A stretch of 64,000 nucleotides of DNA from Patescibacteria group bacterium (lineage in GTDB: Bacteria; Patescibacteriota; UBA1384; XYA2-FULL-43-10; 1-14-0-10-43-13), in assembly GCA_041674765.1 (NCBI GenBank), contig JBAYVE010000005.1:1645-65644 (forward strand). Direction: 5' to 3'. The notes beneath the pieces are model-generated. The model did no database searches. It was given only the letters and a program-made list of their open reading frames with translations, and was not told the origin of the DNA. Positions 5,813 to 47,880 of this stretch are shown in pieces; the stretch's first letter is position 1; each line of letters opens with the position of its first letter. Made by a program: the position numbers and the translations under genes.

Positions 5813-5864
5813 TCCGACTTGCCTTCGGCAGTCGAGATCTCGCCCTTTGGGCGGACATGACACC

Positions 5865-6122
5865 ATGTATTATATTTATGTTTTATACAGTATTCATTAT
5901 CCTAAGAGATATGTTGGATGTACGGGAGATATCCAGAGAAGACTTACCGAACATAATTCTGGCAAAATGTCGTTTACAAAAAGATACATGCCTTGGAAGT
6001 TGATTCACAGCGAAGGATTTGAAACTTTAGCGGAAGCGAGATGCAGGGAGAAATATTTGAAAACTGGTGCCGGCCGACGCTTCCTAAAAACAATTTCTAA
6101 TAATTATTCCGAGATCGTCTAG
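5865..6122 (+). CDS. Small standalone GIY-YIG nuclease-domain protein
   Basis: MYYIYVLYS...YVGCTGDIQRRLTEHN...KLIHSEGFETLAEARCREKYLK, a GIY-YIG / YhbQ-like signature. The last 15 nt of the ORF are the first 15 nt of tRNA-Gln. The longer ORF-track version starts at 5847. Confidence 0.7.
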   Translation: MYYIYVLYSIHYPKRYVGCTGDIQRRLTEHNSGKMSFTKRYMPWKLIHSEGFETLAEARCREKYLKTGAGRRFLKTISNNYSEIV

Positions 6123-6181
6123 TGGCAGGACAGCAGATTCTGGATCTGCTTACCTAGGTTCGAATCCTAGTCTCGGAACCA
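6108..6181 (+). tRNA. tRNA-Gln (anticodon CUG)
   Basis: Manually folded cloverleaf. Acceptor TCCGAGA/TCTCGGA is a perfect 7 bp with U1:A72, typical of bacterial tRNA-Gln. D-stem GTCT/GGAC. Anticodon stem GCAGA/TCTGC with loop TTCTGGA. T-arm CTAGG-TTCGAAT-CCTAG. Discriminator A then CCA. Confidence 0.85.
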
Positions 6182-6297
6182 CGAGAAACAGATCAGTGCA
6201 AGCTGGTCTTTTTCTTTAGGCAAAATTGATTCTCTGCTATTATGAGTTCTGACTTTTGCGTTTTTAGTTTTAAGTTTGGCGACCGAAGGGAGCCACT

Positions 6298-7722
6298 GTG
6301 TGTTTAACTATCCCAGGGAAAATTTTATCGATAAAGGACGGCATTGCGACTGTCAAATCATCAACTGAGACGGCTCAGATCGACCTCTCTTTTGTTTTGG
6401 ACGCCAAGCCGGGGGATTGGATACTCTTTGCCACAAACAGGGCTGTGAAGGTTATTTCTGAGTCTGATGCCAAGGAGATTATATCGCTGCTTGAGGATCA
6501 TTATTCTAAAGTAGATGTCTCAAAGCTACCCCTTAAATTTAAGAAAATAATCTTCAAGGTCAGAAGCCAACACTCCAATAATTCCTCGAATAAAATGAGA
6601 AGTTCTCGACAAGCTCGAACAATAATAGATGACTCGGTCTTGACGAAGGATGAGATTATTTATCTTTTGAATTTAAAAGGGAAAGAAAACCTGGAAACTC
6701 TTTTTGCGGAGGCCAACTCTATACGGAAAGAGAGGATAGAGGACTTTGTTTGCATCCACGGAATTATCGAGTTTTCAAATTTTTGCAAAAATGATTGTTT
6801 ATATTGTGGGCTTCGGAAAAGCAAAAAAACGAGTAGATATAGAATGACCTGTCGGGAAATAGAAAATGTTGCAAAAAAATCTGTTGAAGATGACAGCTAT
6901 AAATTATTGGTCTTACAAAGCGGCGAGGACGATCATTATTTGGATGATGATTTGATAAAAATTATCTTAAATATTCGAGCGAAGATGAAAGTCTTTATTT
7001 TCCTATCTGTCGGGGAAAGGAGCAAGTCTTTTTACGACAGGGCGAAAAAGGCTGGGGCGAGCGGGGCATTAATTCGTTTTGAGAGTTCAGATAACGATTT
7101 TTATGCCAAGATAAGGCCGGGCCATAAGTTGCAGGATAGATTGGATATTATTAATCATTTAAGGGACACCGGCTATTATGTCGCGACGGGTAGTCTCTTC
7201 GGCTTGCCTGGCCAAACCTTGGAGCAAATCGCTGACGATTTGCTGACGATTAAGAAGCTGGGCATCCCGATGATCTCGTCAGGACCATGGCTTGCTGCAA
7301 GTGGAACGCCACTTGCAGGCAAGAATTTCCAATTTCCAATTTCCAACTTCCAATCAAATCCCAAATATCAAATATCAAAAAAAATTTCAAACTTCACATG
7401 GCAAAATACAATATACAATATTCAAAATACTACTGAGAGGCTTGAGCTTGCCTTGAAATACATTGCCGTTGCCAGGTTTATGATGCCGGAGATTAAGATT
7501 CCGGTGACGACAGCGTTGGAAACATTGGATCCAGACGGACGGCACAAGGCACTGCTAGCTGGGGCGAATGCGCTAATGTTCAATTTGACTCCTGAAAAAT
7601 ATTGCGAGAAATATTCGATCTACGACAACAAGTATCGTGAACGTGAGAAAGTTTGGCAAAAGTATGGCCTTTTCAGCGGTGAAGAAAGCTGGGAGATGCT
7701 GGAGGAAAGATTGATGTTGTAA
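6298..7722 (+). CDS. Fusion protein: N-terminal HypC/HybG/HupF-like domain + HydE/BioB/PylB-like radical SAM domain
   Basis: The N-terminus MCLTIPGKILSIKDGIATV....IDLSFV....GDWILFATNRA aligns with HypC (MCIGVPGQI..IDG..A.V.....DL.LV....GQWVLVHVGFA). The radical SAM domain has IEFSNFCKNDCLYCGLRK (CX3CX2C) and a ...LQSGED block as in HydE/BioB. GTG start with RBS AAGGGAG. An in-frame TTTCCAA-repeat insertion lies at ~7321-7425. Confidence 0.7.
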   Translation: MCLTIPGKILSIKDGIATVKSSTETAQIDLSFVLDAKPGDWILFATNRAVKVISESDAKEIISLLEDHYSKVDVSKLPLKFKKIIFKVRSQHSNNSSNKMRSSRQARTIIDDSVLTKDEIIYLLNLKGKENLETLFAEANSIRKERIEDFVCIHGIIEFSNFCKNDCLYCGLRKSKKTSRYRMTCREIENVAKKSVEDDSYKLLVLQSGEDDHYLDDDLIKIILNIRAKMKVFIFLSVGERSKSFYDRAKKAGASGALIRFESSDNDFYAKIRPGHKLQDRLDIINHLRDTGYYVATGSLFGLPGQTLEQIADDLLTIKKLGIPMISSGPWLAASGTPLAGKNFQFPISNFQSNPKYQISKKISNFTWQNTIYNIQNTTERLELALKYIAVARFMMPEIKIPVTTALETLDPDGRHKALLAGANALMFNLTPEKYCEKYSIYDNKYREREKVWQKYGLFSGEESWEMLEERLML

Positions 7723-7761: not shown

Positions 7762-7836
7762 TGGTAGCGTCATGGGGAATCGAACCCCAATTACCGCCGT
7801 GAGAGGGCGGCGTACTAACCGTTATACGATGACGCC
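7762..7836 (-). tRNA. tRNA-Glu (anticodon CUC)
   Basis: The reverse complement folds as acceptor GGCGTCA/TGACGCT, anticodon stem CCGCC/GGCGG with loop CTCTCAC, T-arm TGGGG-TTCGATT-CCCCA, then ACCA. The ORF-track 7772.. N-terminus is an artefact of reading through this tRNA. Confidence 0.8.
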
Positions 7837-9372: not shown

Positions 9373-11271
9373 TTATATTTTTAGGAGTTCTTCGATAGTG
9401 GTTTCGCCGGTTAAAACTTTGCTTAGGCAATGTTGCCGCAATGTAATGAAACCATCTCTTTTGGCGGAGTCGATGACAGAATTAATCCTTCCTTTAATCA
9501 TAAGGGATCTCCTTTCATCATTGAGAGATAAAACCTCAAATATCGGAGTCATTCCCTTATAGCCACTATAGCCACATTTGGCACAGCCTTTACCGATATA
9601 GAACTTTGTTCTGTTCTTAACGCAGGTTTTCAATAGCGGTGGTAGGGACTCAATCTCTTTTTCGAGTTGTCTCTCAAGATTGCCCGCTGAGGCTTCCTCT
9701 TTGCAATAAGGGCAGACTTTCTTGACTAGCCTCTGATTCATATAACCAACCAATTTGGATCCATAATTTTCAAGATTAATTTTAAACCCTACTAATAATT
9801 TATAAAGCATCTCGAAGTCTCTAATGTTTAGTGATGCCATTGTTAAGCATCCTCTTGGCGCCTCCTCAAACATTAATTTGGTTATTTCTGAGCCATCGAG
9901 CTTGTCGATCATAATCACATCGGGAGATTGCAGAATTGCCGAACTATAGCCCGCGATATAGGTATAGCCCAAACTCTCATCTACCTGACTTTGGTTGACA
10001 CCGTCTAGTCTTGATTTGATTGGGTCCTCTAAAGTGATGATATTCAAACTTTCTGCTTCCATATTGGAAATTAATGCATAAGCGGTCGTGGTCTTACCGG
10101 AATTGGCCGGTCCTAATATTAGAAAAACTCCCTGTTTTTCCGTTAGCTCTTTTAGTGTCTTTTTTTGTAGGGGTAACAGGCCCAAATCGTCAAAATCAAT
10201 CAGGGAATTTTTCTCAGAATGGTCTACCCGAATTAATATTTTTTCCCCAAAAGCGAGCGGCATAGTCGAGACTTCAAAATTGATGTTATGGCCGTCGATC
10301 TGAAGAGAAAATTTACCTGTTTGCGGAAGACGGTTTTCTTCGTTTAGGCTAGCCAGGTTTTTTATCTTCATATTTATTGTCTCTCTAGAATGTGCCGGCA
10401 ATACCCCACGCTTGTAGAGAATTCCTTCAATTCGGAAACGGATTTGGATTTCATTACTAATCATATCAACATGGATTTCACTTGCCTCTTCGCGAACCGC
10501 TCTTTTAAAAAGAAGCGATAGGATCCTGTTGGGCGACTCAGAGGGCATCTTCTCTTGAGCAAAAGTGTTTCCTTCGGGGTAGACAGGGAAGATTTTTTCC
10601 AGATCCGTCTCACTTGCCAGAAAAGGAAGGATTATTTTTCCGGTGGTCTTCTCGAGCAGATCGATGGTGTCCAAATCACCTGGATCAGCCATCGCTAAAG
10701 AAATAACACCGTTCTTCTCATCAAAAGGAACGAGCCGACGTTCGACAGCAGTTTTCAGAGGAATCAGCGAAAGAATATCTTCTTTGATAGTTTGTTCGCC
10801 TAAATCGATATAGGCGACAGAGCTCATTTTCCTTGGCTGGAACTCATCGATGGTAGTTTCATGTCTGAAGACTCTAATAGGAATTTCGGAGTTTGGATCG
10901 GGCTTCTGTTCGGCCGTACTGTTCGCCATTAGTTGTTCTTTGATAATTTTGCTGGCGCCATGTGTCACAATCTTATCTGGCATCTCTATTCCCTTATCAA
11001 CAAGCTCTTTTACGTTGCCAGAGGGCATCCACTTGACGGCGTTTGTCGGGAGCATAATCATCTGTTTCTTTTTGCCAAGCACCGGATGGTAAATGATTTT
11101 GGAAGGATAGTGAACGGTATAAAAAGAACCGAAATTAGAGTAAATTACTTTTTCGCCTTTGGAGAGAGCATCAGTCACAACGGAGCCGAAACTGTCGATC
11201 AGTTCCTCGGCTTTTTTGTATGAAATATTGCATTTTTTTGATAATGCCTTTGCTAGTTCTTTTTTTGTCAT
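9373..11271 (-). CDS. Type II/IV secretion ATPase (GspE/PilB family) with N-terminal HU/IHF-like DNA-binding domain
   Basis: The N-terminal ~90 aa MTKKELAKALSKKCNISYKKAEELIDSFGSVVTDALSKGEKVIYSNFGSFYTVHYPSK...PTNAVKWMPSGNVKELV aligns position by position with HU (MNKTELI.AVAE...SKKDA..AVD.....I..AL..GDK.QL.GFG.FEV..R..). This is followed by a GspE_N domain, Walker A LILGPANSGKTTTAYALI, and a C-terminal Cys4 zinc motif (CPYC...CAKC). Start adjusted to ATG with RBS AAGGAG. Confidence 0.8.
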   Translation of the reverse strand: MTKKELAKALSKKCNISYKKAEELIDSFGSVVTDALSKGEKVIYSNFGSFYTVHYPSKIIYHPVLGKKKQMIMLPTNAVKWMPSGNVKELVDKGIEMPDKIVTHGASKIIKEQLMANSTAEQKPDPNSEIPIRVFRHETTIDEFQPRKMSSVAYIDLGEQTIKEDILSLIPLKTAVERRLVPFDEKNGVISLAMADPGDLDTIDLLEKTTGKIILPFLASETDLEKIFPVYPEGNTFAQEKMPSESPNRILSLLFKRAVREEASEIHVDMISNEIQIRFRIEGILYKRGVLPAHSRETINMKIKNLASLNEENRLPQTGKFSLQIDGHNINFEVSTMPLAFGEKILIRVDHSEKNSLIDFDDLGLLPLQKKTLKELTEKQGVFLILGPANSGKTTTAYALISNMEAESLNIITLEDPIKSRLDGVNQSQVDESLGYTYIAGYSSAILQSPDVIMIDKLDGSEITKLMFEEAPRGCLTMASLNIRDFEMLYKLLVGFKINLENYGSKLVGYMNQRLVKKVCPYCKEEASAGNLERQLEKEIESLPPLLKTCVKNRTKFYIGKGCAKCGYSGYKGMTPIFEVLSLNDERRSLMIKGRINSVIDSAKRDGFITLRQHCLSKVLTGETTIEELLKI

Positions 11272-11729
11272 ATCCACTCCTTTAATATTGAGGCGCAAAG
11301 AGGAAAATCGAGACTTTACGGGTCTAAATGAAGCCTTACTCCTCTTTCATATTACAGGCTCAAAGAAATATTTGCAATCGTTTTGTCCCCGAAAAAAGCG
11401 GAAATTAGAGTAGTTGCAAAGTTTTTGTAAAGCATTTTTATGGGAACTATAGAAATTTATCAATATCTATTAATCAGCTACTGTGTACATTCCTGTGGAT
11501 GAGTTGGGGACAAGTTTCTTATTATAAATTATGATTTATGAATTATGAATTAGGGACTTGCTTTCATGACTATCGAAAGCAAGGCATTTCTTAAGGATTG
11601 GAGAAAGACATATAATAGGTTAGTTCGTAAGGCCAGAAAGTCCCAGGTAGGTTATAAAGCTAGGACAGCATTACTACTTTATGAACTTAGTGCCTTATGA
11701 ACTTTTTACTAGCAAACCGGAGGTTTGTT

Positions 11730-20221: not shown

Positions 20222-20358
20222 GCTCAGACGAGCTGAGAGATCCTTCGCTTTGCTCAGGATGACAAAAAGTAAGCTCAGATGACAAAAATAAGCTTATGAT
20301 GACAAAATAACTTCAGGGTGACGGAATAATCTCAGAATGACAAAGTAATCTTGGGATG
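20222..20358 (+). repeat. Six degenerate tandem ~19-20-nt repeats (CTCAGRATGACAAARTAAG) immediately upstream of and running into the uvrD start codon; preceded by GATCCTTCG...CTCAGGATGACA element
   Basis: Read directly: tgctcaggatgacaaaaagtaag / ctcagatgacaaaaataag / cttatgatgacaaaataa / cttcagggtgacggaataat / ctcagaatgacaaagtaat / cttgggatgaagacaaat. Confidence 0.75.
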
Positions 20359-23300
20359 AAGACAAATATGAATGATTTATTGCAAAATTTAAACGAGCCT
20401 CAACGTCAAGCAGTTTTGAATACCGAGGGACCCGTGCTGGTTCTTGCGGGGGCGGGGAGCGGTAAGACAAAAGCGTTGACGCATAGAATTGCTTATTTGA
20501 TTCGCGAAAAGCATATTTCGCCCTATAATATTTTGGCGGTGACTTTTACGAATAAAGCAGCAGCCGAGATAGCTGCTCGTGTACAACAGCTACTCGGAAA
20601 TTCCAATTTCCAAAATCCAATTTCCAATCAATTTCCAAAATCCAATGACCAAAAATATAAATTACCTTGGGCTGGGACTTTTCACTCTGTTTGTGTTAGA
20701 ATATTGCGCCGTGAGGCCGACTACGTGGGCTTTTCCCGCTCTTTTACTATCTATGACGAGAATGACAAGCTATCGGTAATAAAGCGTCTGCAGAAGGACC
20801 TGGGGGTTGATCCGAAGCATTACAATCCAAATTCGATCGGCTACTTCATCTCTGGCGCCAAAAATGAGCTGATCGACGCTAAGGAATATAAGAAGTACAC
20901 GAATTCGCCTTTTGAGCAGATAACCGCCAAGATCTATGAGCGTTATGAAAAATATATGCACGAAGTGAATGCGCTGGATTTTGACGACCTGATTATGCAG
21001 TGCGTGGTTTTGTTCCAAAATAACCCTCAAATTCTCGAAAAATATCAAAATTTATTTAAATACATTTTGATTGACGAGTACCAGGATACCAATCAGGCGC
21101 AATACATTTGGGCGAAGTTACTCGCTTCCAAGCACAATAATATTATGGTGGTGGGCGATGATTATCAGTGTCTAGTGCCGAATACTGATATCTATATTGA
21201 TCAAGAGACATTTCTGCCAATCAAAGCATTGGATAAGGGAAATTTGGTTATGGCGGCCTCAGGTTGGGGCAGTATTTGTCCTGATTTGGTACAGAAAATT
21301 CACAAAACCAAATACTCTGGTTACTTGATTAGGGTCAAGACCAAAGGCGGACGGATATTGGAATTGACGCCGAATCATAAATTGTTTGCAAATCTTCAGT
21401 CTAAGCCAAGTCTTTATTCTGTTTATTTGATGTTTCGCCAGGATAAGGGATATAGGATTGGGATTACACAAGGGGTCAGAAGCAAAAAAGATCAGATTGT
21501 AAGTGGCTTAATGGTGAGAATAAATCAGGAAAGAGGCGATAGAATTTGGTTGCTTCAGTCGTGCAAAACGCTTGGAGATGCTATGTATTTAGAGCAGTTT
21601 TATGCCTTTAAATATGGTATCCCCACAACAATTTTTGAAGATTCTGGCAAAAAGGCTGTTTATTCTCAGGAAAAAATTGATTCTTTATATCAAAATATCC
21701 CGACTGTTGAAAGAGCGCTCAAATTGGCACTAGATATCGATTTAGATCTTGCATTTCCTCATTATCAACCGCAGGCCGTGATTAAAAATGGTAAGGGGCG
21801 GAAGTTGGTCAACTTGGTAATGTTCGGAGAAAACCGAAAATTTGAGAATCGTCCTTGGCATGCTCACCGAATCTGCCTAAATACAACAGACATCAATCTC
21901 AAGGATAAATTGACTGGTTTATATCCTATAAGAAATGGTCAAAGAGGTACTTGGCGAGTAGAAACCTCCAGAAAAGACTATGATCAAGCCGTTGCATATG
22001 CTGAAGGATTATTCAGCTATGATGATGAACTATTGTTGAATCAACGGGCCAGGCTTTTAAGTGATAAGTCATTCAATGTTTTGCCGGCCAAAAATCTTCG
22101 AATTGGAATGGTCGTTCCTGTTTTGAAGGGTAGTAATCTCGACGAGGACGAGATAATTGCTATCGAAAAATTTGATTATGCCGGTGATCTTTATGATCTA
22201 GATATCGCAAATCTTCATAATTATATAGCCAATGGAATGGTTGTTCATAATAGTATTTACTCATGGCGGGGTGCCAATTTCCGCAATATTTTGAACTTTG
22301 AGAAGGATTACAAAAATGCGGTTGTAATCAAGCTTGAACAGAATTATCGCTCGACCAAGACTATTCTGGAGGCGGCCAACGACGTTATTAAATTCAATGA
22401 AAACAAGACTGACAAGAAGCTCTGGACGGAAAATGACACCGGCAGGGCCATTTCTGTTTATGAAGCAATGAACGAGAAGGATGAGGCTGAATTTGTCGCA
22501 ATGGAGGTCAAATCATCGGTCGAAAGTCGGAGGTCGAAAGTCGGAGGCAATTTTACCTCAAACCTCAAACCTCAAACCTCAAGCTATTTCGATTTTGCGG
22601 TTTTGTATCGGACCAATGCCCAGTCTCGAGCAGTTGAAGAAGCGTTTTTGCGGTTTAAGATCCCTTACAAGGTAGTCGGAGGAATGCGCTTTTATGAGCG
22701 CAAGGAGATCAAAGACATTATTTCATTTCTTAGATTGATAAATAACCAGATGGATTTAGAGGCATTAACCAGGGCCGTGTCATGTATGCCAAGGGGAATT
22801 GGCGATAAAACGATCGATAAAATTAGAGAATACATTTCCGCTAACTTTGTCATCTCGAGCGGTGTTCTTGGAGCCGAGAGATCTTTTGACTTGCCAAAGA
22901 TTTCTCCAACCTCGAGTACGAGGGGTCGAAATGATAATTTATTTTTGGTTTTATCTCGGAATGATGCTTTTCCCTCCAAGGTCACCGATTTCTTCAAATT
23001 ACTTTACGAGTTCTATAAACTTTATGAACTCTCAACTCCCTTAGATCAGTTAATTCTGAAAATTGCCGAAAAAACCGGCTATCGAAAGTATCTGCAAGAC
23101 GGTACGCCGGAAGGAGAGGGAAGATGGGAGAATGTATTAGAGCTTTCAACCGTAGCCGCACAGGTTGAAGCTCAAATTACCAATTACCAATTACCAATTA
23201 CCACTCAAATCCCAAGTTCCAATTCTCAAGATTTAGATATTGATCATTCATTGGAAATTGAAAATTATAAAATTGAAAATTCTGAAAGCGGTTTTGAGAA

Positions 23301-23658
23301 CGAAACAACACCATTAGAAAAATTTCTTGAACAGGTGTCGTTGGTGCAAGATACGGACTCGCTTTCAGGCGAGGCTGGTGTTGTGACATTGATGACGCTT
23401 CATTCAGCCAAGGGCCTGGAATTTAAGACAGTTTTCATCGTCGGTGTCGAGGAAGGACTATTCCCACATTCTCGGGCATTGATGGATAATTCAGAGATGG
23501 AGGAGGAGCGACGCCTGGCCTATGTCGGCATTACCCGTGCCAAAGAACTATTATATTTGCTCTATGCTACAGAGCGTAATCTCTACGGCCGGCTTCAATG
23601 GAACGAAAAATCAAGGTTTATTGAGAATATTCCAGAGCACTTGTTGGATGAAATTTAA
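20356..23658 (+). CDS. uvrD: UvrD/PcrA-family ATP-dependent DNA helicase carrying an intein and multiple in-frame repeat insertions
   Basis: Walker A AGAGSGKTKALTHRIAYL, motif ILIDEYQDTNQAQY, and VVGDDYQ...SIYSWRGA split by the intein. C-terminal motifs VTLMTLHSAKGLEF and YVGITRAKE. Confidence 0.85.
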   Translation: MKTNMNDLLQNLNEPQRQAVLNTEGPVLVLAGAGSGKTKALTHRIAYLIREKHISPYNILAVTFTNKAAAEIAARVQQLLGNSNFQNPISNQFPKSNDQKYKLPWAGTFHSVCVRILRREADYVGFSRSFTIYDENDKLSVIKRLQKDLGVDPKHYNPNSIGYFISGAKNELIDAKEYKKYTNSPFEQITAKIYERYEKYMHEVNALDFDDLIMQCVVLFQNNPQILEKYQNLFKYILIDEYQDTNQAQYIWAKLLASKHNNIMVVGDDYQCLVPNTDIYIDQETFLPIKALDKGNLVMAASGWGSICPDLVQKIHKTKYSGYLIRVKTKGGRILELTPNHKLFANLQSKPSLYSVYLMFRQDKGYRIGITQGVRSKKDQIVSGLMVRINQERGDRIWLLQSCKTLGDAMYLEQFYAFKYGIPTTIFEDSGKKAVYSQEKIDSLYQNIPTVERALKLALDIDLDLAFPHYQPQAVIKNGKGRKLVNLVMFGENRKFENRPWHAHRICLNTTDINLKDKLTGLYPIRNGQRGTWRVETSRKDYDQAVAYAEGLFSYDDELLLNQRARLLSDKSFNVLPAKNLRIGMVVPVLKGSNLDEDEIIAIEKFDYAGDLYDLDIANLHNYIANGMVVHNSIYSWRGANFRNILNFEKDYKNAVVIKLEQNYRSTKTILEAANDVIKFNENKTDKKLWTENDTGRAISVYEAMNEKDEAEFVAMEVKSSVESRRSKVGGNFTSNLKPQTSSYFDFAVLYRTNAQSRAVEEAFLRFKIPYKVVGGMRFYERKEIKDIISFLRLINNQMDLEALTRAVSCMPRGIGDKTIDKIREYISANFVISSGVLGAERSFDLPKISPTSSTRGRNDNLFLVLSRNDAFPSKVTDFFKLLYEFYKLYELSTPLDQLILKIAEKTGYRKYLQDGTPEGEGRWENVLELSTVAAQVEAQITNYQLPITTQIPSSNSQDLDIDHSLEIENYKIENSESGFENETTPLEKFLEQVSLVQDTDSLSGEAGVVTLMTLHSAKGLEFKTVFIVGVEEGLFPHSRALMDNSEMEEERRLAYVGITRAKELLYLLYATERNLYGRLQWNEKSRFIENIPEHLLDEI
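21169..22251 (+). mobile_element. Intein (361 aa) inserted in the UvrD motif between VVGDDYQ and SIYSWRG
   Basis: Begins with Cys (CLVPNTDIYID, block A). TPNHKLF is block B (T..H). Ends ...DLYDLDIANLHNYIANGMVVHN followed by Ser (blocks F/G, terminal HN + nucleophile). The central region is a possibly degenerate homing-endonuclease domain. The extein motif is restored upon excision. Confidence 0.8.
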
Positions 23659-27409: not shown

Positions 27410-28807
27410 TCACGGGAGGCAATTTTCGGTTTCGATGAGGCTATTCGCGGCGAGGAAGCCTTTTTCCATCCGTCGGTATCCTACCTCAAACTCGGGGAAA
27501 TGTTGAAGCATCCTCCTTCTGTTTTTGAGATAGGCATTCTCGAAGAACGCCCTCATCAAATATTTTCGAGCCCATAATTGGTCGAAACCGACATCGAGTA
27601 CGGGGTGAGCCGTATCCCAGTGCCTCAGATCGTGATCGATGACCATTGCTTGAATCGTAGGGTCTGATCCGCTCTTTGACGCCAAGAATGGGGTAAAAGA
27701 GGAGCACCGAAATCCTGTTGCGGAGCAGGTCTTTACCCATTCTGCGGTTGCCTCAATGTCTTTTACTGTTTGCCCTGGAATGCCGATGACATTGAGACAT
27801 CTGGTGGCGATCCCATTATCGGTGCACAGCTCGAAAATCGCATTGGGATCGCTTTCTCCTCGATATGCTTGCTTGTTCATACGCCGCCGCTCGCTCACAG
27901 AGGGACTTTCGACACCAATCGAGAGCATGCACCAGCCGGCAGCACGCATGGCGGGGATGATTTCGTCCGCATGAGAGAGAGCCGGATTATATAGTCCTCC
28001 CATCACAACATGTTTATTTAGTCCACGCTTGATGATCTCATCGCAGACCGACATAAGCCATCGGAAATTGAGATTTATATTGAGGTCATCCCAATCAATG
28101 GAACGATATCCTTGTGTAACCAAGTATTCGATCTCATTGACAACATGTGCGGGTTCGCGGGAGACCACGTTTTTTCCCCATGCCTCACGTGACTCACAGA
28201 AACTGCAGTCGAAGGGACAGCCTCTCCGGCCGATTATTGAAGTTGGCATCTGTTCCTCTATCTCAAGCGGCCAGATATCTCTCATATGGAGGAAAGGTAC
28301 TATACTTGGATCTCGAAAGGGATAGATCGCTCCTGTCCAATTGAGATCGCGCCCACTCCGAACAATGCCTTTCGCCTGTCTCCTTTCGACTATTGCTTTG
28401 ACGGCCAGTTCGCCCTCGCCCACCACGACCCAGTCGAAGGTATCGATGAGATATTGTGGTATAGAGGTTGCGCCAGGTCCGCCTACAATTAGCTTAACTT
28501 CAGGGCACTCTGTCCGGATTGTTTTGGCGATTTCGTTGGCTTCATCTAGGGTCCAGGTCATGCAGCTTATACCCACATAAGCACAGTTCTTGGCCTTTTC
28601 AACGATCTCCCGGGTAGTGAAAGATCGAATGGCAAGGTCGATCACCTCGACGTCGAAGCCCATGTGCATCAACATAGAAGCGATATATAGAAGTCCTAAG
28701 TTTGGCAGATTTGCATTGCCAAAGAGATTCTTCCGGCCTGAGCCGGCGCTGATAAGCAGTACTTTTTTCAAAGGAGCCTCCTTTCGGTTGTAAGTGTGCC
28801 AATTCAT
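27410..28807 (-). CDS. B12-binding-domain radical SAM (class B) enzyme
   Basis: N-terminal Rossmann-like B12-binding region (KKVLLISAGS...VEVIDLA). Radical SAM cysteine triad RRGCPFDCSFC. Confidence 0.7.
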   Translation of the reverse strand: MNWHTYNRKEAPLKKVLLISAGSGRKNLFGNANLPNLGLLYIASMLMHMGFDVEVIDLAIRSFTTREIVEKAKNCAYVGISCMTWTLDEANEIAKTIRTECPEVKLIVGGPGATSIPQYLIDTFDWVVVGEGELAVKAIVERRQAKGIVRSGRDLNWTGAIYPFRDPSIVPFLHMRDIWPLEIEEQMPTSIIGRRGCPFDCSFCESREAWGKNVVSREPAHVVNEIEYLVTQGYRSIDWDDLNINLNFRWLMSVCDEIIKRGLNKHVVMGGLYNPALSHADEIIPAMRAAGWCMLSIGVESPSVSERRRMNKQAYRGESDPNAIFELCTDNGIATRCLNVIGIPGQTVKDIEATAEWVKTCSATGFRCSSFTPFLASKSGSDPTIQAMVIDHDLRHWDTAHPVLDVGFDQLWARKYLMRAFFENAYLKNRRRMLQHFPEFEVGYRRMEKGFLAANSLIETENCLP

Positions 28808-31661: not shown

Positions 31662-32600
31662 ATGATTGACTTATCAAACAAAACTGAACTGACTTCATAT
31701 CTTAAAGAAAAGGGTCTCTGGGCAAAGCATGGCCTCGGGCAAAATTTTTTGGTTGATAGAGATGCGCTTGATAAAATTATCGATACAGCTTTTGATACAC
31801 CCCACCCAACCTCCCCTCACGAAGGGGAGGAGTCGTTGATTATTGAAGTTGGGCCGGGGGTAGGGACGATGACGGAGGAGCTTGTCAAACATGCGAAGAA
31901 GGTGATTGCGGTTGAATTGGATGAGAAATTAAAGCAATTGTTAAATGGCTATATTGCTGAATTGCTTAAGAACAACAATATAACAATAGAACAATATAAC
32001 AATTTTGAATTAATCAATGCCGATGTACTCAAGGTCAATATTCCCGAATTAGTCGGTGATCAGAAGTACAAGGTTGTGGCCAATATTCCGTATTATATTA
32101 CCTCCAAAATTTTGCAATTATTCTTGACGCTTGAAAATAAGCCGGAGAGTATTACTTTGCTCGTGCAAAAAGAGGTAGCAGAGCGGATTTGTGCTAAACC
32201 TGGTGAGATGTCGGTGCTGGCAGTTTCCGTGCAAGTTTACGGCGAGCCAAGAATTGCCGGCATTGTGAAGAAGGAATCATTTTTCCCCTCGCCAAAAGTG
32301 GACTCGGCAATATTGCATATCGCAATTTCCAATTTTCAATTTCCAATTTTCAATCAATTTCTAAATTACAATTTCCAAACGAAAGAAGCGTTTGAGAAGG
32401 CTTTTTTCCGCCTTGTTCATATCGGTTTTGCGGCAAGAAGAAAAACGCTCGCTAATAACCTCTCAAACGGCTACCATATAGACAAGAAGACAGCAGAGGA
32501 TATAATTAGATCAATGGGATTTTCTGTAAGCATTCGTGCGCAAGAATTATCAGTAGACGACTGGAAGAAGCTGGCAAAAGTCGTATTAGGTATTACGTAG
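31662..32600 (+). CDS. rsmA: 16S rRNA (adenine1518/1519-N6)-dimethyltransferase
   Basis: GQNFLVD....KI.......EVGPG.G.MT..L; NIPYYITS. Two in-frame element insertions: hairpin element at ~31797-31840 (DTPHPTSPHEGEESL) and TTTCCAA repeats at ~32325-32385. Confidence 0.85.
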   Translation: MIDLSNKTELTSYLKEKGLWAKHGLGQNFLVDRDALDKIIDTAFDTPHPTSPHEGEESLIIEVGPGVGTMTEELVKHAKKVIAVELDEKLKQLLNGYIAELLKNNNITIEQYNNFELINADVLKVNIPELVGDQKYKVVANIPYYITSKILQLFLTLENKPESITLLVQKEVAERICAKPGEMSVLAVSVQVYGEPRIAGIVKKESFFPSPKVDSAILHIAISNFQFPIFNQFLNYNFQTKEAFEKAFFRLVHIGFAARRKTLANNLSNGYHIDKKTAEDIIRSMGFSVSIRAQELSVDDWKKLAKVVLGIT

Positions 32601-32776
32601 TACGTATTAAGTATTAAGTATTAAGTGGTAGGTGTTATGTGGAGGAAGGCGCTGGGGAATGTACTAAGGGGTAAATATTAAGTATTATGCAAGAGAACAA
32701 AAAAATCGAATCTGAATATTTATTTGTCATTCCAGACTGTGGCTCGATCCGCCAACTGGCGGACTGGAATCCAGCC

Positions 32777-33160
32777 ATGCCCTTCGTAGCTGTCAAGCGA
32801 AGTGGGAGAGTGAAGTCATACTATATTTACATTATGGCTAGTCGAAGGAAAGGCACATTGTATATCGGTGTGACGAATGATTTGATCAGAAGAATCTGGC
32901 AGCACAAGAATAAAGTTATTGATGGATTTACGAAAGATTATAATGTCTCCTTATTGGTTTATTATGAAGAAACAGCAGATATTAAATCAGCAATCAAAAG
33001 AGAAAAGCAATTGAAGTCTTGGAATCGACAATGGAAGATAGAATTGATTGAGAAAACAAACCCTGATTGGCATGATTTGTACAGAGAGATAGCTGGATCC
33101 TCGGGTATTACTCTCGAGAGCACCGCCGATCCCGAGGATGACAGGGGAGTGATTCCATAA
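32777..33160 (+). CDS. Small GIY-YIG nuclease-domain protein (YhbQ-like)
   Basis: SYYIYIMASRRKGTLYIGVTNDLIRRIWQHK...LVYYEE......AIKREKQLKSWNR.WK. The 5' region 32700-32776 is a palindromic repeat element (the same element, inverted, is at 2707-2760). Confidence 0.65.
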   Translation: MPFVAVKRSGRVKSYYIYIMASRRKGTLYIGVTNDLIRRIWQHKNKVIDGFTKDYNVSLLVYYEETADIKSAIKREKQLKSWNRQWKIELIEKTNPDWHDLYREIAGSSGITLESTADPEDDRGVIP

Positions 33161-39846: not shown

Positions 39847-40044
39847 ATGAAACACATAGGGTGTTTTATTATGATTGCAGTGTTTTTTACAGCTTTCATA
39901 TGGCGAGCGGTGGAAATGCTGATGGTGAAGAAAGTCTGGCCAGGGATGCCAGGCTTTTGGAGTATGATCATCGCTACCACGATCACAAGTGTGGTCATGG
40001 GTAGCGTCTGCTGGGCAGCAATGAAGCTGTCTAGCCGCAAATAA
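39847..40044 (+). CDS. Small membrane protein (2 TM)
   Basis: Hydrophobic ORF with RBS AAGGAG 8 nt upstream. Confidence 0.35.
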   Translation: MKHIGCFIMIAVFFTAFIWRAVEMLMVKKVWPGMPGFWSMIIATTITSVVMGSVCWAAMKLSSRK

Positions 40045-40314
40045 TATCTGCCAGAGCGCCTTTGCCTGCGAGAGCAGGACTTGTATAAGGATGTACATGA
40101 GGTGCTCTGGACCAATCTTTTGAGAAATGAAGGATTTATTCTTCGAACGTAGTGAGGAGTTCTCGACTTCTAGAACATCGCTCGAGCAATAAGTTATTTT
40201 TCCTCAAAATTTTTTTAGAGGAGTCTATGTGTCTCGCCTCAGGCGAGCCGAAAGCCTTCAAGGACATAGACTAGCCGGTCTTCGATAAATGAAGTGAAGA
40301 TCGGTGGAGGGAAT

Positions 40315-41361
40315 GCGATGACACGCATTTTCTTGAGTTCCAACCCCGAAAATCTGGCGGCTGAGTTGGCCGCTTTCCGCCTGACCGCAACGGTTGAGGC
40401 AGAATTCGGCGACACGGTCGTCGAAGGGTCAATTCTGACTCTCGCGCATCACGGCGCCCGGTCGGCGAACTCGGCTCCCTGCCTCGCCAGCAATGGTGTG
40501 GCCGGTGACCCGGTGCAGGTCGAGGCGATTGGCGTGAGCCACATCGACCTCGATTCCCTGGGCGGCGTAATGGCCGTCCTCGGGTCCAAGCCGGAATCGG
40601 TCGGCTTCTGGGCCTTGTCGGCCTTCGTCGATACGAATGGCCCCCACAAGTTGGCCCAGGCCGGCGCCGAGGCAGCGGATGTCGCCCGGCTCTACGCCTT
40701 TTGGGCGTATAGCCAGGCGCACCGGCTCATGCCGGATCGTTCCGGCGCCGTCACGGATGTGACCGAGCAGGTCACCGAGGCCATGGAGGCAATCGCGGCC
40801 ATCCTGGCCGACGACCCCGCCATGCTGGCCGCCGGCAATGATTTCCGCTCGGCGGAGGATTCGCTGAACAAGCGATCCTTTGTCGAGATGGTGGGAGGCG
40901 TTGGCGTCCGCGTTGCGGACGTTTTCGTCAGCCACCTCTATGGCTCGCCGGAAGGCGAGCTGGCGAAGGCCGTCGTGGCCTTTAACACCGTCACGGGTAC
41001 CGTGACGGTTTCCCTTGCTGATCCCATCCCCGGGGTCAGCGCCTGCACGATTGTGCAGGGAATCTGGGGGACGGAAGCCGGCGGGCATGCCGGCATCGCG
41101 GGTAGTCCCCGCGGTCGCCGCATGACTTTGGCTGATCTTGCCCGGGCGGCGGAAGCCGTCCGGGAGGTCATCGCCTCCACTTCGGTGGAGTGCGAGGACT
41201 GCGGGCAGGTGGTCTCCGACCTCCTGCCCGGCCAAATCCCCGACGGTTGGGGCACCGTCGGGTGCTACGAGGATTGCCCCAAGCACGAGGAGGCGTATTG
41301 CCCCTCGTGCTTGCCCGCCGCTCAGGCGGCGGGGCGTCATCGCTGTGGGCATGACCACTAG
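40315..41361 (+). CDS. Hypothetical protein (62% GC island) with C-terminal Cys/His-rich metal-binding tail; weak DHH-phosphoesterase-like motifs
   Basis: RBS GGAGGGA. Contains GVSHIDLDSLGG (similar to DHH motif I H..D.D..G) and GGHAGIAGS (similar to DHH-family GGGH motif), but no DHH triad. C-terminal CEDCGQ...CYEDCPKHEEAYCPSC...HRCGHDH. The antisense 333-aa ORF is judged a GC-shadow. Confidence 0.45.
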   Translation, partial: AMTRIFLSSNPENLAAELAAFRLTATVEAEFGDTVVEGSILTLAHHGARSANSAPCLASNGVAGDPVQVEAIGVSHIDLDSLGGVMAVLGSKPESVGFWALSAFVDTNGPHKLAQAGAEAADVARLYAFWAYSQAHRLMPDRSGAVTDVTEQVTEAMEAIAAILADDPAMLAAGNDFRSAEDSLNKRSFVEMVGGVGVRVADVFVSHLYGSPEGELAKAVVAFNTVTGTVTVSLADPIPGVSACTIVQGIWGTEAGGHAGIAGSPRGRRMTLADLARAAEAVREVIASTSVECEDCGQVVSDLLPGQIPDGWGTVGCYEDCPKHEEAYCPSCLPAAQAAGRHRCGHDH

Positions 41362-41560
41362 CGATGACGGAAGGCTTTGCTTGTTGAGCCAATCCAACAA
41401 GCTGCTTCGCTTGAGGCAGGAAGAAATCAAGCAACAACCCGCTCCGACCTTTTAGTCGGAGCACCAGAGCCTGCCCTAGGACAAGAAGTTCTAGGGCACT
41501 CCTTATTCAATTTAATTTCGATTGAATTGAATAAAAGAGAATGGCTTCAAAGAAGTTTTG

Positions 41561-41647
41561 CAAAAATTACTGTCTTATAAATTGATCTATCAGATTAGTT
41601 ATAAGGCAATAATGCCTTGATTGTGAGTCGAAAGGAGAAAGACCATG
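41561..41647 (+). promoter_or_regulatory. AT-rich regulatory element inside GC-rich island: AAATTACTGTCTTATAAATTGATCTA...TTATAAGGCAATAATGCCTT...GAAAGGAGAAA-ATG; second copy at 42719-42805
   Basis: The two ~85-nt copies are about 85% identical. Each contains the palindrome AAGGCAATAATGCCTT and an RBS, and ends at the ATG of a small ORF. Confidence 0.7.
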
Positions 41648-41830
41648 GCTTACAATTGCAAAAAGACGGACCATGATGGTCCGAAGCGTGGCGCTGGCGC
41701 CTTTCGGGGTCGCCGCGCCGACGCAAAAGTGGCGGCTTCGCGCCGCCGCCGCCAGGATGGCCGCAATGAAGCGGCCAAAGGACTGGCAGAACAGGGGAAC
41801 GCTCAGGAGGGCGTTCCCAAACCATTTTGA
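41645..41830 (+). CDS. Small basic protein (61 aa, Arg/Ala-rich)
   Basis: ORF immediately following the repeated regulatory element + RBS AAAGGAG. Confidence 0.35.
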   Translation: MAYNCKKTDHDGPKRGAGAFRGRRADAKVAASRRRRQDGRNEAAKGLAEQGNAQEGVPKPF

Positions 41831-41916
41831 TTAAGATTTAGAGTTTTTTGATTTAAAATTCCAATCTTCATCAAATCCCATTATGGCCATTGAGTCTGAG
41901 GGAATGGAGGTGAAGT

Positions 41917-42204
41917 ATGTTGAAACATTTTTTACGGTTTTTAAACCGTATAGCTAAAGCCGAGGTCGTAAAGGCCGAAGCGGAAGCTATGGCGGCCAAA
42001 GTGGCCGCCGACGAAGCCGCAAGGAAGGCGGCACGAGAAAATCACGAAGCGCAGGAAGCGCTTTTGGTCGTAACTGCCCTGAAGGATTCGGGGCGGTTGA
42101 TCTCATCCATCACAGAATTCACTGGTGGGTGTGATCGGGGTGCGTGGCACCCCACGAAGATTTGGAGTCTTGATGGGCAACAGATTGCCCACTGGACTCT
42201 TTGA
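41917..42204 (+). CDS. Hypothetical protein; 5' leader (41860-41916) shares a conserved motif with leader of 46971 gene
   Basis: Leader ...CTTCATCAAA.C.CATTGAG.CTGAG.G.A.GGAGGTGAAGTATG is shared with 46913-46970. Confidence 0.4.
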   Translation: MLKHFLRFLNRIAKAEVVKAEAEAMAAKVAADEAARKAARENHEAQEALLVVTALKDSGRLISSITEFTGGCDRGAWHPTKIWSLDGQQIAHWTL

Positions 42205-42331
42205 AAAGGATTGGCCGGACGACGCGGCCATAAGCTACTCAAATGATTGAGTAGCACAGTCGAGCCATGCAGCCTCGCGGTATCGGGAATAAGCTCATAG
42301 AGCCCCAACCGCAAAAAGGAGGTGTAGTGCA

Positions 42332-42529
42332 GTGGCAAAAGACGCTCAGGCGGCCATGAGGCCGTCTGTCATCCCCATTCTCATCGAGAAGGGGATGAGC
42401 CGCGAGGAGTTGATGCTTCTCGTAGATCGTCTCGTTGGCGAGGTGGAAACCTACGCTAATGGGCCGTTCTCGGCAGAAGCACTCCGTGGCGAAATCACGG
42501 CAGTGCAGAATACCGTTGTAAAACGGTAG
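42332..42529 (+). CDS. Hypothetical small protein
   Basis: ORF with RBS AAGGAGG (42317-42323). Confidence 0.35.
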   Translation: MAKDAQAAMRPSVIPILIEKGMSREELMLLVDRLVGEVETYANGPFSAEALRGEITAVQNTVVKR

Positions 42530-42802
42530 ACTGCTGGGTACAAAACTTTGCTCCGACGGGTTAGATCGGGGCGGCGCCAGTCAAGGTGTCTGGGCGGGGA
42601 CTTTCCTATAAGTTGTCTTCATGGCAGCGATGAAATGGAAAGCGAAACCACAAAAATCCGCAACTATGCGACAAATAGTGAAATATTCCCGAGGAGCCCC
42701 AGCTGGGGCTCCTCAAATCCAAAATTACTGTCTTATAAATTGATCTAATTTGATCAGTAATAAGGCAATAATGCCTTCTGGCGCATATGAAAGGAGAAAA
42801 TT

Positions 42803-42937
42803 ATGATCGTATGCGTATATTGTAAAACGCCCCCGGATGGGGCAGCCGTGTGCCCGTGTTGCGGCCACACGATGGACTCCTCCACCATGGAATGGGTGGA
42901 GGAGCAGGATAACTCTCCCAAGGATGGGGAGAAATAA
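42803..42937 (+). CDS. 44-aa zinc-ribbon protein (CVYC...CPCC), not in ORF track (<60 aa)
   Basis: Translation MIVCVYCKTPPDGAAVCPCCGHTMDSSTMEWVEEQDNSPKDGEK, read manually. Preceded by the second copy of the regulatory element + RBS AAAGGAG. Confidence 0.4.
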   Translation: MIVCVYCKTPPDGAAVCPCCGHTMDSSTMEWVEEQDNSPKDGEK

Positions 42938-43197
42938 ACAAACCGATTTATCCGTGAGAGGCATCGGGCATGACGTCCTTTGCCTCTCAAATTTTTCTCT
43001 TTATCAAACTGCTCTCGAACTTCGAGAGCAGTTTCAGTATAGAGTTTTCTTGGGCCACCCTGCCCATTTGCCCTGACGCGCCGTCCGTAGATTTACGCAG
43101 AGGATGGACTTGTTTGGCTTGAAACACTAGCCGGACTGGAGGGAAGTCGATTAAATTCGGCCAGGCAGGGGTGGGTGATAATCCCCGGTCTGAGGAG

Positions 43198-45150: not shown

Positions 45151-45161
45151 AGGAGGGCAAA

Positions 45162-46676
45162 ATGAGCGAAAAACTCCTAGAGGTGCTGGCGGCAAACAAA
45201 GCGCGACAAGATCGCGCCCGCCAGCTTAATATTCGGGCCGGGGCAGAAATGTTTCCCGTGCTCGACCAGGCGCAAATGAGAGCCTGGATGACCGATAAGG
45301 CAGCGGGAGCGCGCCGGATGGCAGAGATTGCCGATCCTGAAGCTCTACGCTTGCCTGCCCTCGACGAGGTTTTGGTTCAAACGGTGATTCGCGAGAACCC
45401 CGACGAGATCGAGCTTCTCGGGGCGATGCGAACAGTGGATTACAAGGATAGTTACGGCCGTTCCAGGCCGAATCCGCGGGTCCGCATTGACTTCAGGGGA
45501 GAGAATGCCAACGACTGGCAAAGGCTCCCCGACGAGATCCGGTTGCCGGGTGGCCGTGAGGTTTGCCTGTATTCCGCCATTGACGGATATGGGTATTACA
45601 TCGAGGCTGTGCCCTCTGAGTTTAAGGCAAAAGTGCGTGATTGCCTAAACCAGGCTCAATGGGACAACTGGCCTCAGGCCGATCGACCGGAGATCCCAGT
45701 TCTCGACCCGGCCGACGACGAGGCGGCTATCCCTGAAATCACCACTGTCCAGTACGGGCAGTGCGTGGTGACGGGCGAGCCGCTCATCGCCTTTGGTACT
45801 TTGGCTCCGAAGAGCCGATACTACACGACGGACCCATATTTCGTGGTCCAGTGGTACCGGTCGATTGAGGAGGCCGAAGTGTCTCGGGTAAAGGCCGTCG
45901 AAACGCTCGAGAAAGAGCTAGCGGCTGTCCGGGAGTGCCGGGAACTGGAGATCGCCAAGCAGGAAGCTGAAGCGGTCAAATTAATATTCGAGTCACTCTA
46001 CCGCGAAGTAGATAATACCCGCGAGTGGCTTGAGTTGCCGGATGAATTGAGGAATCGTCTTCGTAGCCGGCATTGTAGCTATGTACCATCCTCATTGCTG
46101 GAAATCCGCCAATGGCAAGCAGAGACAGAGGCGTTAATCGCTGAGGTAGGGCCAGCTTTGGTGGAAATCAAGCGTCAGCAGGCGGAAGCCGAGCGTCAGG
46201 CACGCGAAGAGCAGGAAGCTGCTGTTCGTGCCGAAGAAGCTCGGCGGGTTCGTGAGGAGGAAGCCCATCGTGGGCAGATGGAAGAGATTCTGACTGCCAT
46301 GCGGGGTGTCCTCGGGTATGTGCCTGTAATCCGTTGCGACTTTGAAGAAGTCGCCGGCAAGAATGGTACATACTTGGAAAATTGGGGCCGCCTCACAGGT
46401 ATTAACTGTGATGGCGAGTCCGACTCGTACTGTGACGGCCGTAATGCCGTGGTGGTGCAGTCTGTTGAAACCACCGGCGGTGTGCTGGAGTTCCTGGCCT
46501 ACTGGAAGTATGGCAATTGGAACTTGGCCGCTCGCTGGCGAGAACTTTCCGAAGCCGCGGCACACGCCGTTGAGATTGGGGAGGTTCGGGCGGAGGATCT
46601 GGAAGATCCGAAGCCAGTAGAAGATCTGGGGGCGTCGCTTGCGGCGCTCCAGGCGAAGTTCAAAGGATTGAACTAA
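45162..46676 (+). CDS. Hypothetical protein with central coiled-coil (ERQAREEQEAAVRAEEARRVREEEAHR)
   Basis: RBS AGGAGGG. The start is 12 nt after the helicase stop. No recognised domain. Confidence 0.45.
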   Translation: MSEKLLEVLAANKARQDRARQLNIRAGAEMFPVLDQAQMRAWMTDKAAGARRMAEIADPEALRLPALDEVLVQTVIRENPDEIELLGAMRTVDYKDSYGRSRPNPRVRIDFRGENANDWQRLPDEIRLPGGREVCLYSAIDGYGYYIEAVPSEFKAKVRDCLNQAQWDNWPQADRPEIPVLDPADDEAAIPEITTVQYGQCVVTGEPLIAFGTLAPKSRYYTTDPYFVVQWYRSIEEAEVSRVKAVETLEKELAAVRECRELEIAKQEAEAVKLIFESLYREVDNTREWLELPDELRNRLRSRHCSYVPSSLLEIRQWQAETEALIAEVGPALVEIKRQQAEAERQAREEQEAAVRAEEARRVREEEAHRGQMEEILTAMRGVLGYVPVIRCDFEEVAGKNGTYLENWGRLTGINCDGESDSYCDGRNAVVVQSVETTGGVLEFLAYWKYGNWNLAARWRELSEAAAHAVEIGEVRAEDLEDPKPVEDLGASLAALQAKFKGLN

Positions 46677-46970
46677 TCGCCAATTTCCGTCCATCACCCT
46701 TCCTTCGGGAGCGGTGATGGACACTTCAACCTGCCCGTGATGGCTATTCTACATGTTTGTCTATTAGATGATCATGCAGGATACTCCTGAGCCATTGCCG
46801 GCAGATTAGAAGAATTTGGAAACAGTGCGTCTTAAACCTTTCTATCTTTTGATGCAGATTTAGAGTGATTAACTTTATAACTTTCAGCTTTATGAACTTT
46901 ATAAACTAATTTTCCAACCTTCATCAAAGCGCATTGAGCCCAATTGAGGCTGAGCGGGAGGAGGTGAAGT

Positions 46971-47762: not shown

Positions 47763-47880
47763 GCTCTCCAACCCACCGTTTCGGCGGTGGGTTGGAAATT
47801 TAAACCTGCTTTCAATGGCGGTTCTGCATAGTTTACTGCGCGGGACACTCCTGCGCCATTGTTGGCAGATTTAAAGCAAA

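Follow-up and report, generated by a model that had tools for sequence, protein, structure and literature searches.

The window analyzed here is a 64,000-nucleotide stretch of contig JBAYVE010000005.1 from a Patescibacteria group bacterium (assembly GCA_041674765.1). Its gene at 6298..7722 (+) encodes a 474-residue protein in which an N-terminal HypC domain, a chaperone specific to [NiFe] hydrogenases, is joined to a radical S-adenosylmethionine (SAM) enzyme of the HydE type. Based on its conserved residues and the genomic context of its relatives, we conclude that this fusion is probably a bifunctional hydrogenase maturase, one whose family, with HydG, would build the iron-carbonyl/cyanide unit of [NiFe] hydrogenases. 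The gene is a single uninterrupted open reading frame (ORF) with a GTG start and a TAA stop, and its predicted product is 100% identical to P0001 in the cluster listing. The start is fixed, because homologues share an invariant M-C-L-T-I-P N terminus, which in the fusion reads M-C-L-T-I-P-G-K-I. A covalent fusion had been proposed in the initial annotation, and it stands: the one frame is intact, with no frameshift, and the PF01455 plus PF04055 architecture recurs in >100 clusters at 90% identity, with full-length relatives in 304 GTDB species (scan of one genome per species).

The N-terminal domain was matched by Pfam HupF_HypC (PF01455) over residues 1 to 65 with 55.4 bits (cut-off, 28.5) and by the NCBIfam subfamily model hypC_hupF (TIGR00074) with 51.8 bits (cut-off, 48). 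HypC structures in the PDB align to residues 1 to 63 (2z1c at E 6e-8), and identity to Escherichia coli HypC is 28%. Residues C2, L3, T4, and P6 are invariant across the 89 homologues of alignment A3. HypC homology, suggested earlier from the N-terminal residues, is thereby supported by curated thresholds and by an invariant Cys2. In common with HypC, HybG, and HupF, the domain has an OB fold of ∼65 residues, an M-C-x-x-x-P start with the invariant cysteine, and [NiFe] large subunits as genomic associates; it differs in its covalent attachment to a radical-SAM enzyme and in having no HypD partner gene nearby.

The remainder of the protein is specifically HydE. Pfam Radical_SAM (PF04055) covers residues 157 to 315 (74.8 bits), and BATS reaches 20.5 bits over residues 384 to 429, under its cut-off of 22.2. 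Among NCBIfam models, HydE (TIGR03956) ranks first with 243.9 bits in two stretches. This score falls just below the cut-off of 254.6 because an insert, described below, splits the match; ten insert-free relatives all pass narrowly, with 257 to 296 bits. PylB (TIGR03910; 137.6 bits versus a cut-off of 348), BioB (TIGR00433; 86.5 versus 225), and ThiH (69.6 bits, far under its NCBIfam cut-off) lie well below. The best PDB match is HydE of Thermotoga maritima (TmHydE; E 1e-59), over residues 110 to 342 and 383 to 450. An AlphaFold model, used for confidence and fold matching only, has a mean predicted local distance difference test score (pLDDT) of 84.5 and a predicted template modeling (pTM) score of 0.87, and its best Foldseek matches are HydE structures (TM-score, 0.84 to 0.88), followed by PylB and BioB. 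The earlier assignment to a class resembling HydE and biotin synthase is thus narrowed to HydE by profile, PDB match, and fold.

The automatic JGI name of the family is “biotin synthase,” and the weak BATS match points the same way; this identity is refuted by the BioB score and by the better match to HydE in both sequence and fold. We also ruled out the joining of two neighboring genes by a sequencing error, since the continuous ORF recurs in hundreds of independent assemblies. That the fusion is either a biotin synthase or such an artifact is therefore barely credible.

Residues that matter for HydE chemistry are retained. Equivalences to TmHydE were calibrated on its known C63/C67/C70, which align to the CX3CX2C cysteines of the fusion; these cysteines and the counterparts of Met224 and Met291 are invariant in both A3 and the 20-sequence alignment A1 (Table 1). 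Relative to HydE as represented by TIGR03956 and the TmHydE structures 3cix, 7o1o, and 7o1t, the fusion thus has the same (βα)8 fold, the CX3CX2C motif, equivalents of Met224, Met291, and Lys309, and a frequent HydG partner, whereas it adds the HypC domain and a conserved C-terminal tail and is without auxiliary-cluster cysteines. The tail has near-invariant columns at W453, K455, Y456, G457, L458, F459, E462, E463, S464, and M467. It lies beyond the TmHydE alignment, which stops at residue 450, its model confidence is only moderate, and it may be a docking element. The linker between the HypC and HydE parts is a hot spot for insertions of variable length in A1.

The family is broadly distributed under inconsistent names, including “[FeFe] hydrogenase maturase HydE” (NCBI) and “HypC” in addition to the JGI name. 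Hosts include many members of the candidate phyla radiation (CPR)/Patescibacteria, Kuenenia/Brocadiaceae (anammox) and other Planctomycetota, “Deltaproteobacteria,” Thermodesulfobacteriota, Syntrophales (Desulfobacterota-like), and one metagenome-assembled genome (MAG) labeled Nanoarchaeota. In a search of 1.84 billion representatives, the HypC domain was present in ∼23 of the best 150 matches, the others being ordinary HydEs of ∼350 residues with similar scores. A rough neighbor-joining tree of 146 HydE domains, calculated without bootstrap, places 28 HypC-bearing sequences in one 30-tip clade. The HypC-bearing proteins thus appear to form their own HydE subclade, a further difference from HydE at large along with equivalog scores barely above the cut-off. 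Single-ORF HypC-HydE-HydG triple fusions also exist: L074 (10001-12646, 881 residues, in a Falkowbacteria MAG), P0361 (881 residues), and P0367 (906 residues). In locus L007, on a 798-kb CPR contig, the apparent start codon of the fusion is ATC (10001-10003), preceded by AGGAGG and followed by a Cys codon; gene callers therefore shortened the ORF, and its HypC domain was missed (P0069 is listed without PF01455).

Gene neighborhoods in the family

We called ORFs within 10 kb on either side of the fusion in 83 distinct related loci (1.40 Mb in total) and searched them with E. coli HypA to HypF, HycI, and HycE and with HydG, the large subunit (LSU) and small subunit (SSU), the beta and gamma subunits, and HypC from two of the loci. 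HydG was present in 50/83 loci and lay directly downstream of the fusion (<300 bp) in 47; a [NiFe] LSU was found in 48, and one or the other in 63. HypA/HypB and a HycI-like protease also recur. Three arrangements are typical. Two are beta-gamma-fusion-HydG-SSU-LSU and HypC-fusion-HydG with a convergent LSU-SSU-gamma-beta behind it; the third, seen in Planctomycetota and “Deltaproteobacteria,” runs fusion-HydG-HypA-HypB, with or without the HycI-like protease, and then a different [NiFe] hydrogenase. In five loci (L036, L046, L047, L049, and L054), the fusion and HydG fill the usual hypCDEF slot. A free HypC accompanies the fusion in 16 loci (the CF pattern).

The neighbors are genuine. HydG scores 569 bits against TIGR03955 (cut-off, 312), and all 50 HydG neighbors carry both CX3CX2C and a C-terminal CX2CX22C. 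RxCGxC is present in 46 of the 48 LSUs and DPCxxCxxH in 44. Most LSUs end at the His, and 8 have a C-terminal extension, 2 of them (L036 and L060) near a HycI-like protease. The initial annotation had treated the protein as detached from hydrogenases, a view that does not extend to its relatives, most of which sit in [NiFe] operons with HydG, HypA/HypB, and the protease. Neighborhood counts from PMC12727194 were considered as a baseline for hyp linkage and rejected, as they pool matches to 13 query genes.

HypD, HypE, and HypF were not detected anywhere in the 1.40 Mb of flanking sequence by phmmer to E 10, and tblastn gave only two chance matches (E 0.07 to 0.14). As a positive control of sensitivity, the same E. 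coli seed set found the small, divergent HypA, HypB, and HycI. Likewise, no ORF in the window or the flanks carried HydA or HydF signature motifs in a local search. Unbiased clustering of neighbors revealed no further recurrent maturation-like family and no HydF or HydA family; the recurrent families were a short HypA-like protein, glycolytic enzymes, RmuC, GIY-YIG nucleases, and 23S rRNA intervening sequence proteins.

These results bear on whether the protein is simply a canonical [FeFe]-type HydE with an accessory OB fold that partners with HydG, HydF, and HydA encoded elsewhere. Such an identity would agree with the equivalog scores of the insert-free relatives, the HydG genes adjoining the fusion in many loci, and the NCBI name. 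We nevertheless consider it highly improbable: neither HydF nor HydA left a signature in the window, the flanks, or the recurrent neighbor families, the operons hold [NiFe] subunits, HypA/HypB, and the HycI-like protease in the place of the HydF and HydA partners of HydE, and the fused domain is a [NiFe]-specific chaperone with a functional Cys2.

Full-text literature searches returned no paper on the function of the fusion and a single mention, one sentence in a preprint (bioRxiv 10.64898/2026.04.11.717937) noting a fused HydE-HypC protein, described as unusual, in the [NiFe] operon of “Candidatus Centrionella anaeramoebae.” This Legionellales symbiont has a 1.52-Mb genome, and its operon is thought to have been laterally acquired from Deltaproteobacteria (bioRxiv 10.64898/2026.04.11.717937). 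The symbiont protein has the same domain combination and occurs with HybD, HypA, and HypB as the maturation set beside a group-3 [NiFe] hydrogenase. The preprint sentence differs from the present analysis in offering no mechanism, no link to HydG, and no survey, and the text does not mention HydG, HypD, HypE, or HypF. The parts of the fusion are known families, and the fusion itself is already automatically annotated in databases; apart from that one sentence, the combination and its [NiFe] context are undescribed in the searched literature.

Three CPR group-3b hydrogenase loci that lack the fusion carry a free HypC of 64 to 72 residues followed by a conserved orphan protein of ∼205 residues (L091, 5792-6640; L092, 5822-6646; and L094, 12197-13028). 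The orphan matched nothing in Pfam or the PDB, and neither the window nor the fusion loci encode it. No HypD, HypE, or HypF was found within 10 kb in these three loci.

A candidate route to the [NiFe] iron unit

HydG builds an [Fe(Cys)(CO)2(CN)] synthon, which is the substrate of HydE; HydE uses radical chemistry to strip the cysteine backbone, and its Met291 and Met224 hold Fe(I)(CO)2(CN)S species close to an exit on the protein surface that is normally turned toward HydF (PMC11826987, PMC10114646). In TmHydE, Met224 and Met291 serve in Fe(I) binding, hand-over, and dimerization and Lys309 in radical relay (PMC11826987, PMC10114646). Given the conservation of the radical-SAM motif and of the equivalents of these three residues, the HydE domain of the fusion would bind the synthon made by HydG, and a 5′-deoxyadenosyl radical would remove the cysteine backbone. 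Formation of the synthon is established HydG chemistry, and in the window's lineage HydG is known from one clade member. There would then be no dimerization and no HydF; instead, Cys2 of the tethered HypC may take up the mononuclear Fe-CO/CN unit. Because of the operon context, we infer that the HypC domain would insert this unit into the apo-LSU before nickel insertion by HypA/HypB. The pair of HydG and HypC-HydE would thus stand in for the HypD/E/F branch or, at a minimum, feed it.

The arrangement resembles the HydG-HydE-HydF pathway to the [2Fe]H cluster in that HydG adjoins the HydE part and is sometimes fused to it, which implies that HydG hands the synthon directly to HydE. The HydF scaffold and HydA client of that pathway were not seen, however; the tethered HypC is proposed to act as acceptor, and a mononuclear product is proposed in place of a [2Fe] dimer. 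The initial annotation had envisaged an unusual metallocofactor assembly. Its link between [NiFe] and [FeFe] maturation fits the family-wide context, but its separate new cofactor does not: because most relatives are embedded in [NiFe] hydrogenase operons, the likely product is the [NiFe] site itself. In its fullest form, the proposal describes a HypD/E/F-independent route to the [NiFe] site in CPR bacteria, anammox Planctomycetota, some Desulfobacterota-like bacteria, and at least one DPANN-labeled MAG, with CO and CN both derived from tyrosine via HydG, the HydE domain processing the synthon, and HypC delivering it. We advance this version tentatively and with somewhat less than even confidence. 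The evidence for the hypothesis as a whole is comparative genomics.

Several observations weigh against the proposed maturase role, the first of which are chemical. The ligands of the HydG synthon, Fe(CO)2(CN), do not match the Fe(CN)2(CO) of the [NiFe] site; it might even be that the [NiFe] site in these organisms carries a noncanonical CO/CN complement. Transfer from the HydE part to Cys2 of HypC is a purely inferential step. His51 of E. coli HypC, which is implicated in the Fe chemistry of HypC with HypD, aligns with Ala45 of the fusion, and the column is not His in A1, another departure from HypC, HybG, and HupF. Some related CPR 3b hydrogenase loci have only a free HypC, with no fusion nearby. 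Finally, the absence of HypD/E/F covers the 10 kb on either side of the fusions, and copies may be encoded elsewhere in these genomes.

This scope, the ligand count of the synthon, and the free HypC in 16 loci would all agree with a feeder role, in which HydG and HypC-HydE supply one diatomic ligand (e.g., CO) or a preformed Fe-CO unit to a standard HypC/D/E/F system encoded elsewhere in the genome. We assign this an appreciable but minor likelihood, since HypA, HypB, the protease, HydG, and the fusion colocalize and in five loci take the usual hypCDEF slot, no HypD/E/F match was recovered from the flanks, and the genomes are very small; that of “Candidatus Centrionella anaeramoebae” lists no HypD/E/F (bioRxiv 10.64898/2026.04.11.717937).

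The other points against the maturase reading come from the window's own clade. The closest relatives (L001, L005 to L015, and L082) share 55 to 64% identity, and in all ∼13 clade loci the fusion stands alone, with neither HydG nor a hydrogenase within 10 kb, often in the same synteny as in the window (GltX, GT4, fusion, response regulator, PilB, DnaX, and DnaB). In the window itself, Pfam scans of ∼50 ORFs detected no hydrogenase or maturation genes, and tblastn with LSU, SSU, HydG, HypA to HypF, and HycI seeds matched only the fusion. The source contig (77,446 bp in ENA) extends ∼13 kb beyond the window, and that part also contained no hydrogenase or Hyp/Hyd gene, so the earlier remark that no hydrogenase genes are nearby holds over ∼77 kb. 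No LSU at least 49% identical to the 3b-type LSU of L002 was found on the 867-kb or 798-kb clade contigs among the best 120 clusters, a weak negative given that a divergent LSU could escape; as a positive control of the contig matching, the LSU of L002-type genomes was recovered (842,305 bp). The client enzyme of the window's fusion may therefore be missing or different.

Accordingly, the client of this clade's fusion could be something other than a [NiFe] hydrogenase, or the fusion could have outlived a lost hydrogenase, an idea close to the earlier suggestion of a new metallocofactor. Its solitary position throughout the clade, the lack of a detected LSU on the source contig and on the two long contigs, and the strong conservation of a protein with all catalytic residues intact speak for this. 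We judge it improbable, because sister clades at 53 to 55% identity have the fusion beside a 3b hydrogenase, HydG is retained in a clade member, the LSU search covered the best 120 clusters, and the conserved neighbors (GltX, the GT4 glycosyltransferase, pilus genes, and DnaX) point to no alternative client. The retained gene belongs to HydG cluster P0279, which lies as a lone gene on the same 798,787-bp contig as clade fusion P0069/L007. The fusion is thus retained in the clade, as is HydG in at least one member, with partner genes scattered or perhaps lost. Because the genes of clade members are dispersed, the missing hydrogenase genes near the window's fusion can be regarded as a feature of the clade.

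The repeat insert and the rest of the window

The fusion gene is a solitary unit, because tRNA genes lie on both sides and a hairpin follows the upstream one (Table 1); an Rfam scan of the window found nothing beyond these two tRNAs.

Table 1. Features of the fusion gene, its flanks, and the D2 repeat family (window positions)
Feature	Position	Strand	Evidence
tRNA-Gln(CTG), upstream flank	6108..6181	+	ARAGORN, Rfam
Terminator-like hairpin after tRNA-Gln	6190-6209		Terminator scan
Shine-Dalgarno-like GAAGGGAG	6285..6292	+	5 nt before GTG; read from sequence
HypC/HupF domain, aa 1-65, N-terminal Cys2	6298..6492	+	PF01455, TIGR00074
Linker, aa 66-110; predicted long helix 79-101, then disordered 102-110	6493..6627	+	AlphaFold secondary structure, pLDDT
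HydE-type radical-SAM (βα)8 barrel, aa 111-474	6628..7719	+	TIGR03956, TmHydE match, Foldseek
CX3CX2C radical-SAM [4Fe-4S] motif, C163/C167/C170	6784..6807	+	Invariant in A1 and A3; aligns to TmHydE C63/C67/C70
Met325, equivalent of TmHydE Met224 (Fe(I)-binding site S3)	7270..7272	+	TmHydE alignment; invariant in A1 and A3
In-frame 120-nt insert, aa 343-382, D2 repeat copy: (AATTTCC)4-AATCAAATCCCAAAT...	7324..7443	+	Tandem Repeats Finder; TmHydE and insert-free homologues
Met427, equivalent of TmHydE Met291	7576..7578	+	TmHydE alignment; invariant in A1 and A3
Lys445, equivalent of TmHydE Lys309 (radical relay)	7630..7632	+	Invariant in A1; ≥90% conserved in A3
Conserved family-specific C-terminal tail, aa 451-474, VWQKYGLFxGEESWEMLEERL	7648..7719	+	A1, A3
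tRNA-Glu(CTC), downstream flank	7762..7836	-	ARAGORN, Rfam
D2 copies	2388-2448, 7324-7384, 20598-20658, 23175-23235, 32324-32384, 59120-59180, 62756-62816	+	Repeat family listing

The insert that splits the HydE match is extra relative to both TmHydE and insert-free homologues. Tandem Repeats Finder reported AATTTCC ×4.4 at 7324-7354, followed by degenerate 7-mers, and the 16-mer AATTTCCAATTTCCAA, allowing ≤3 mismatches, has 31 matches in the window versus 2.7 expected. Eight copies of the ∼61-nt D2 element align in register: 2 in the UvrD-like gene, 1 in the RsmA gene, 1 in the fusion gene, and 4 in intergenic regions. Every D2 copy in the window is on the plus strand. The initial annotation had described a 100-nt TTTCCAA insertion in this protein; an insertion is present, at 120 nt and in frame, but it is not specific to the protein, being one of eight genome-dispersed copies. 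AlphaFold pLDDT is <50 at residues 347 to 351 and 359 to 373, and 10-residue block means are 42 to 65 across residues 341 to 380; the insert is therefore predicted to be a floppy, disordered surface loop. Together with the HypC-HydE linker, it is one of two sites that vary in length across the family in A1. The fusion of this genome tolerates the repeat copy as an in-frame addition to a surface loop.

Rickettsia palindromic elements and similar short repeats also insert in frame in coding genes. The D2 insert resembles these elements in being a short dispersed repeat tolerated in frame, at surface loops of housekeeping proteins, a likeness that implies no relationship; it differs in having a unit with a 7-nt period, in not being palindromic, and in occurring on one strand only in the window. 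Several dispersed repeat families with a 7-nt period are present (AATTTCC, AGCnAAA, AGTATTA, and AATACAT), as is a hairpin-like repeat element, CCCCTCGAAAAGGGGGAG; the repeat families are D1, D2, and D4 to D7. Repeat copies lie in frame inside the housekeeping genes for UvrD (twice), RsmA, MetRS, and IscS and encode peptides such as ISNFQFPI and NTPPLAPPRKGGE.

By Pfam content, the window is otherwise of a housekeeping character, with GltX, a GT4 glycosyltransferase, PilB, DnaX, DnaB, and PurE/C, along with an intein-bearing UvrD, RsmA, Nramp, MetRS, IscS/NifU, FolD, and MnmA. The UvrD/PcrA-like helicase (20356-23658, +, 1100 residues) has a Pfam Intein_splicing match between its helicase halves in addition to its two in-frame D2 copies. 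The PilB/T2SSE ATPase (9373-11298, -) has an unusual architecture, with an N-terminal HU/IHF-like Bac_DNA_binding domain besides MshEN, which is kept in the relative L001 (14750-16903). A second radical-SAM enzyme (27410-28807, -, 465 residues) has a B12-binding domain and no evident tie to the fusion. Small GIY-YIG nuclease ORFs are found among the housekeeping genes at 5847-6122, 32687-33160, and 60802-61101, and ORFs for 23S rRNA intervening sequence proteins are found at 49835-50197 and 57319-57669; ORFs of both families also turn up repeatedly near the fusion in its relatives. From ∼40000 to 48000, an island with a G+C content of 0.51 to 0.58 stands in a background of 0.40 to 0.44. Among its Arg/Ala-rich products are a DEAH/HA2 helicase (43171-45150) and a DUF7448 protein, and it contains a 40-nt direct repeat at 41889 and 46943 (D19). 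Foreign or mobile DNA could account for the island, as could a chimeric assembly.

Implications for hydrogenase maturation

[NiFe] and [FeFe] hydrogenases are a textbook case of convergent evolution, and their maturation systems (HypA to HypF versus HydE, HydF, and HydG) are regarded as unrelated. Where the CO ligand comes from in anaerobic [NiFe] maturation is an old question. The combination of HydG, HypC-HydE, and HypA/HypB in a [NiFe] operon without HypD/E/F is a concrete candidate for a radical-SAM route to the [NiFe] iron that draws on tyrosine. If the proposal is correct, the family would represent a hybrid of two maturation systems that have so far been treated as separate and would provide a compact maturation kit with which to express [NiFe] hydrogenases heterologously. 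The gene in the window is a member of this family and not an isolated oddity; its lineage has dispersed the partner genes or may have lost them. More broadly, the proposed route would explain how group-3b enzymes are matured in genome-reduced CPR bacteria.

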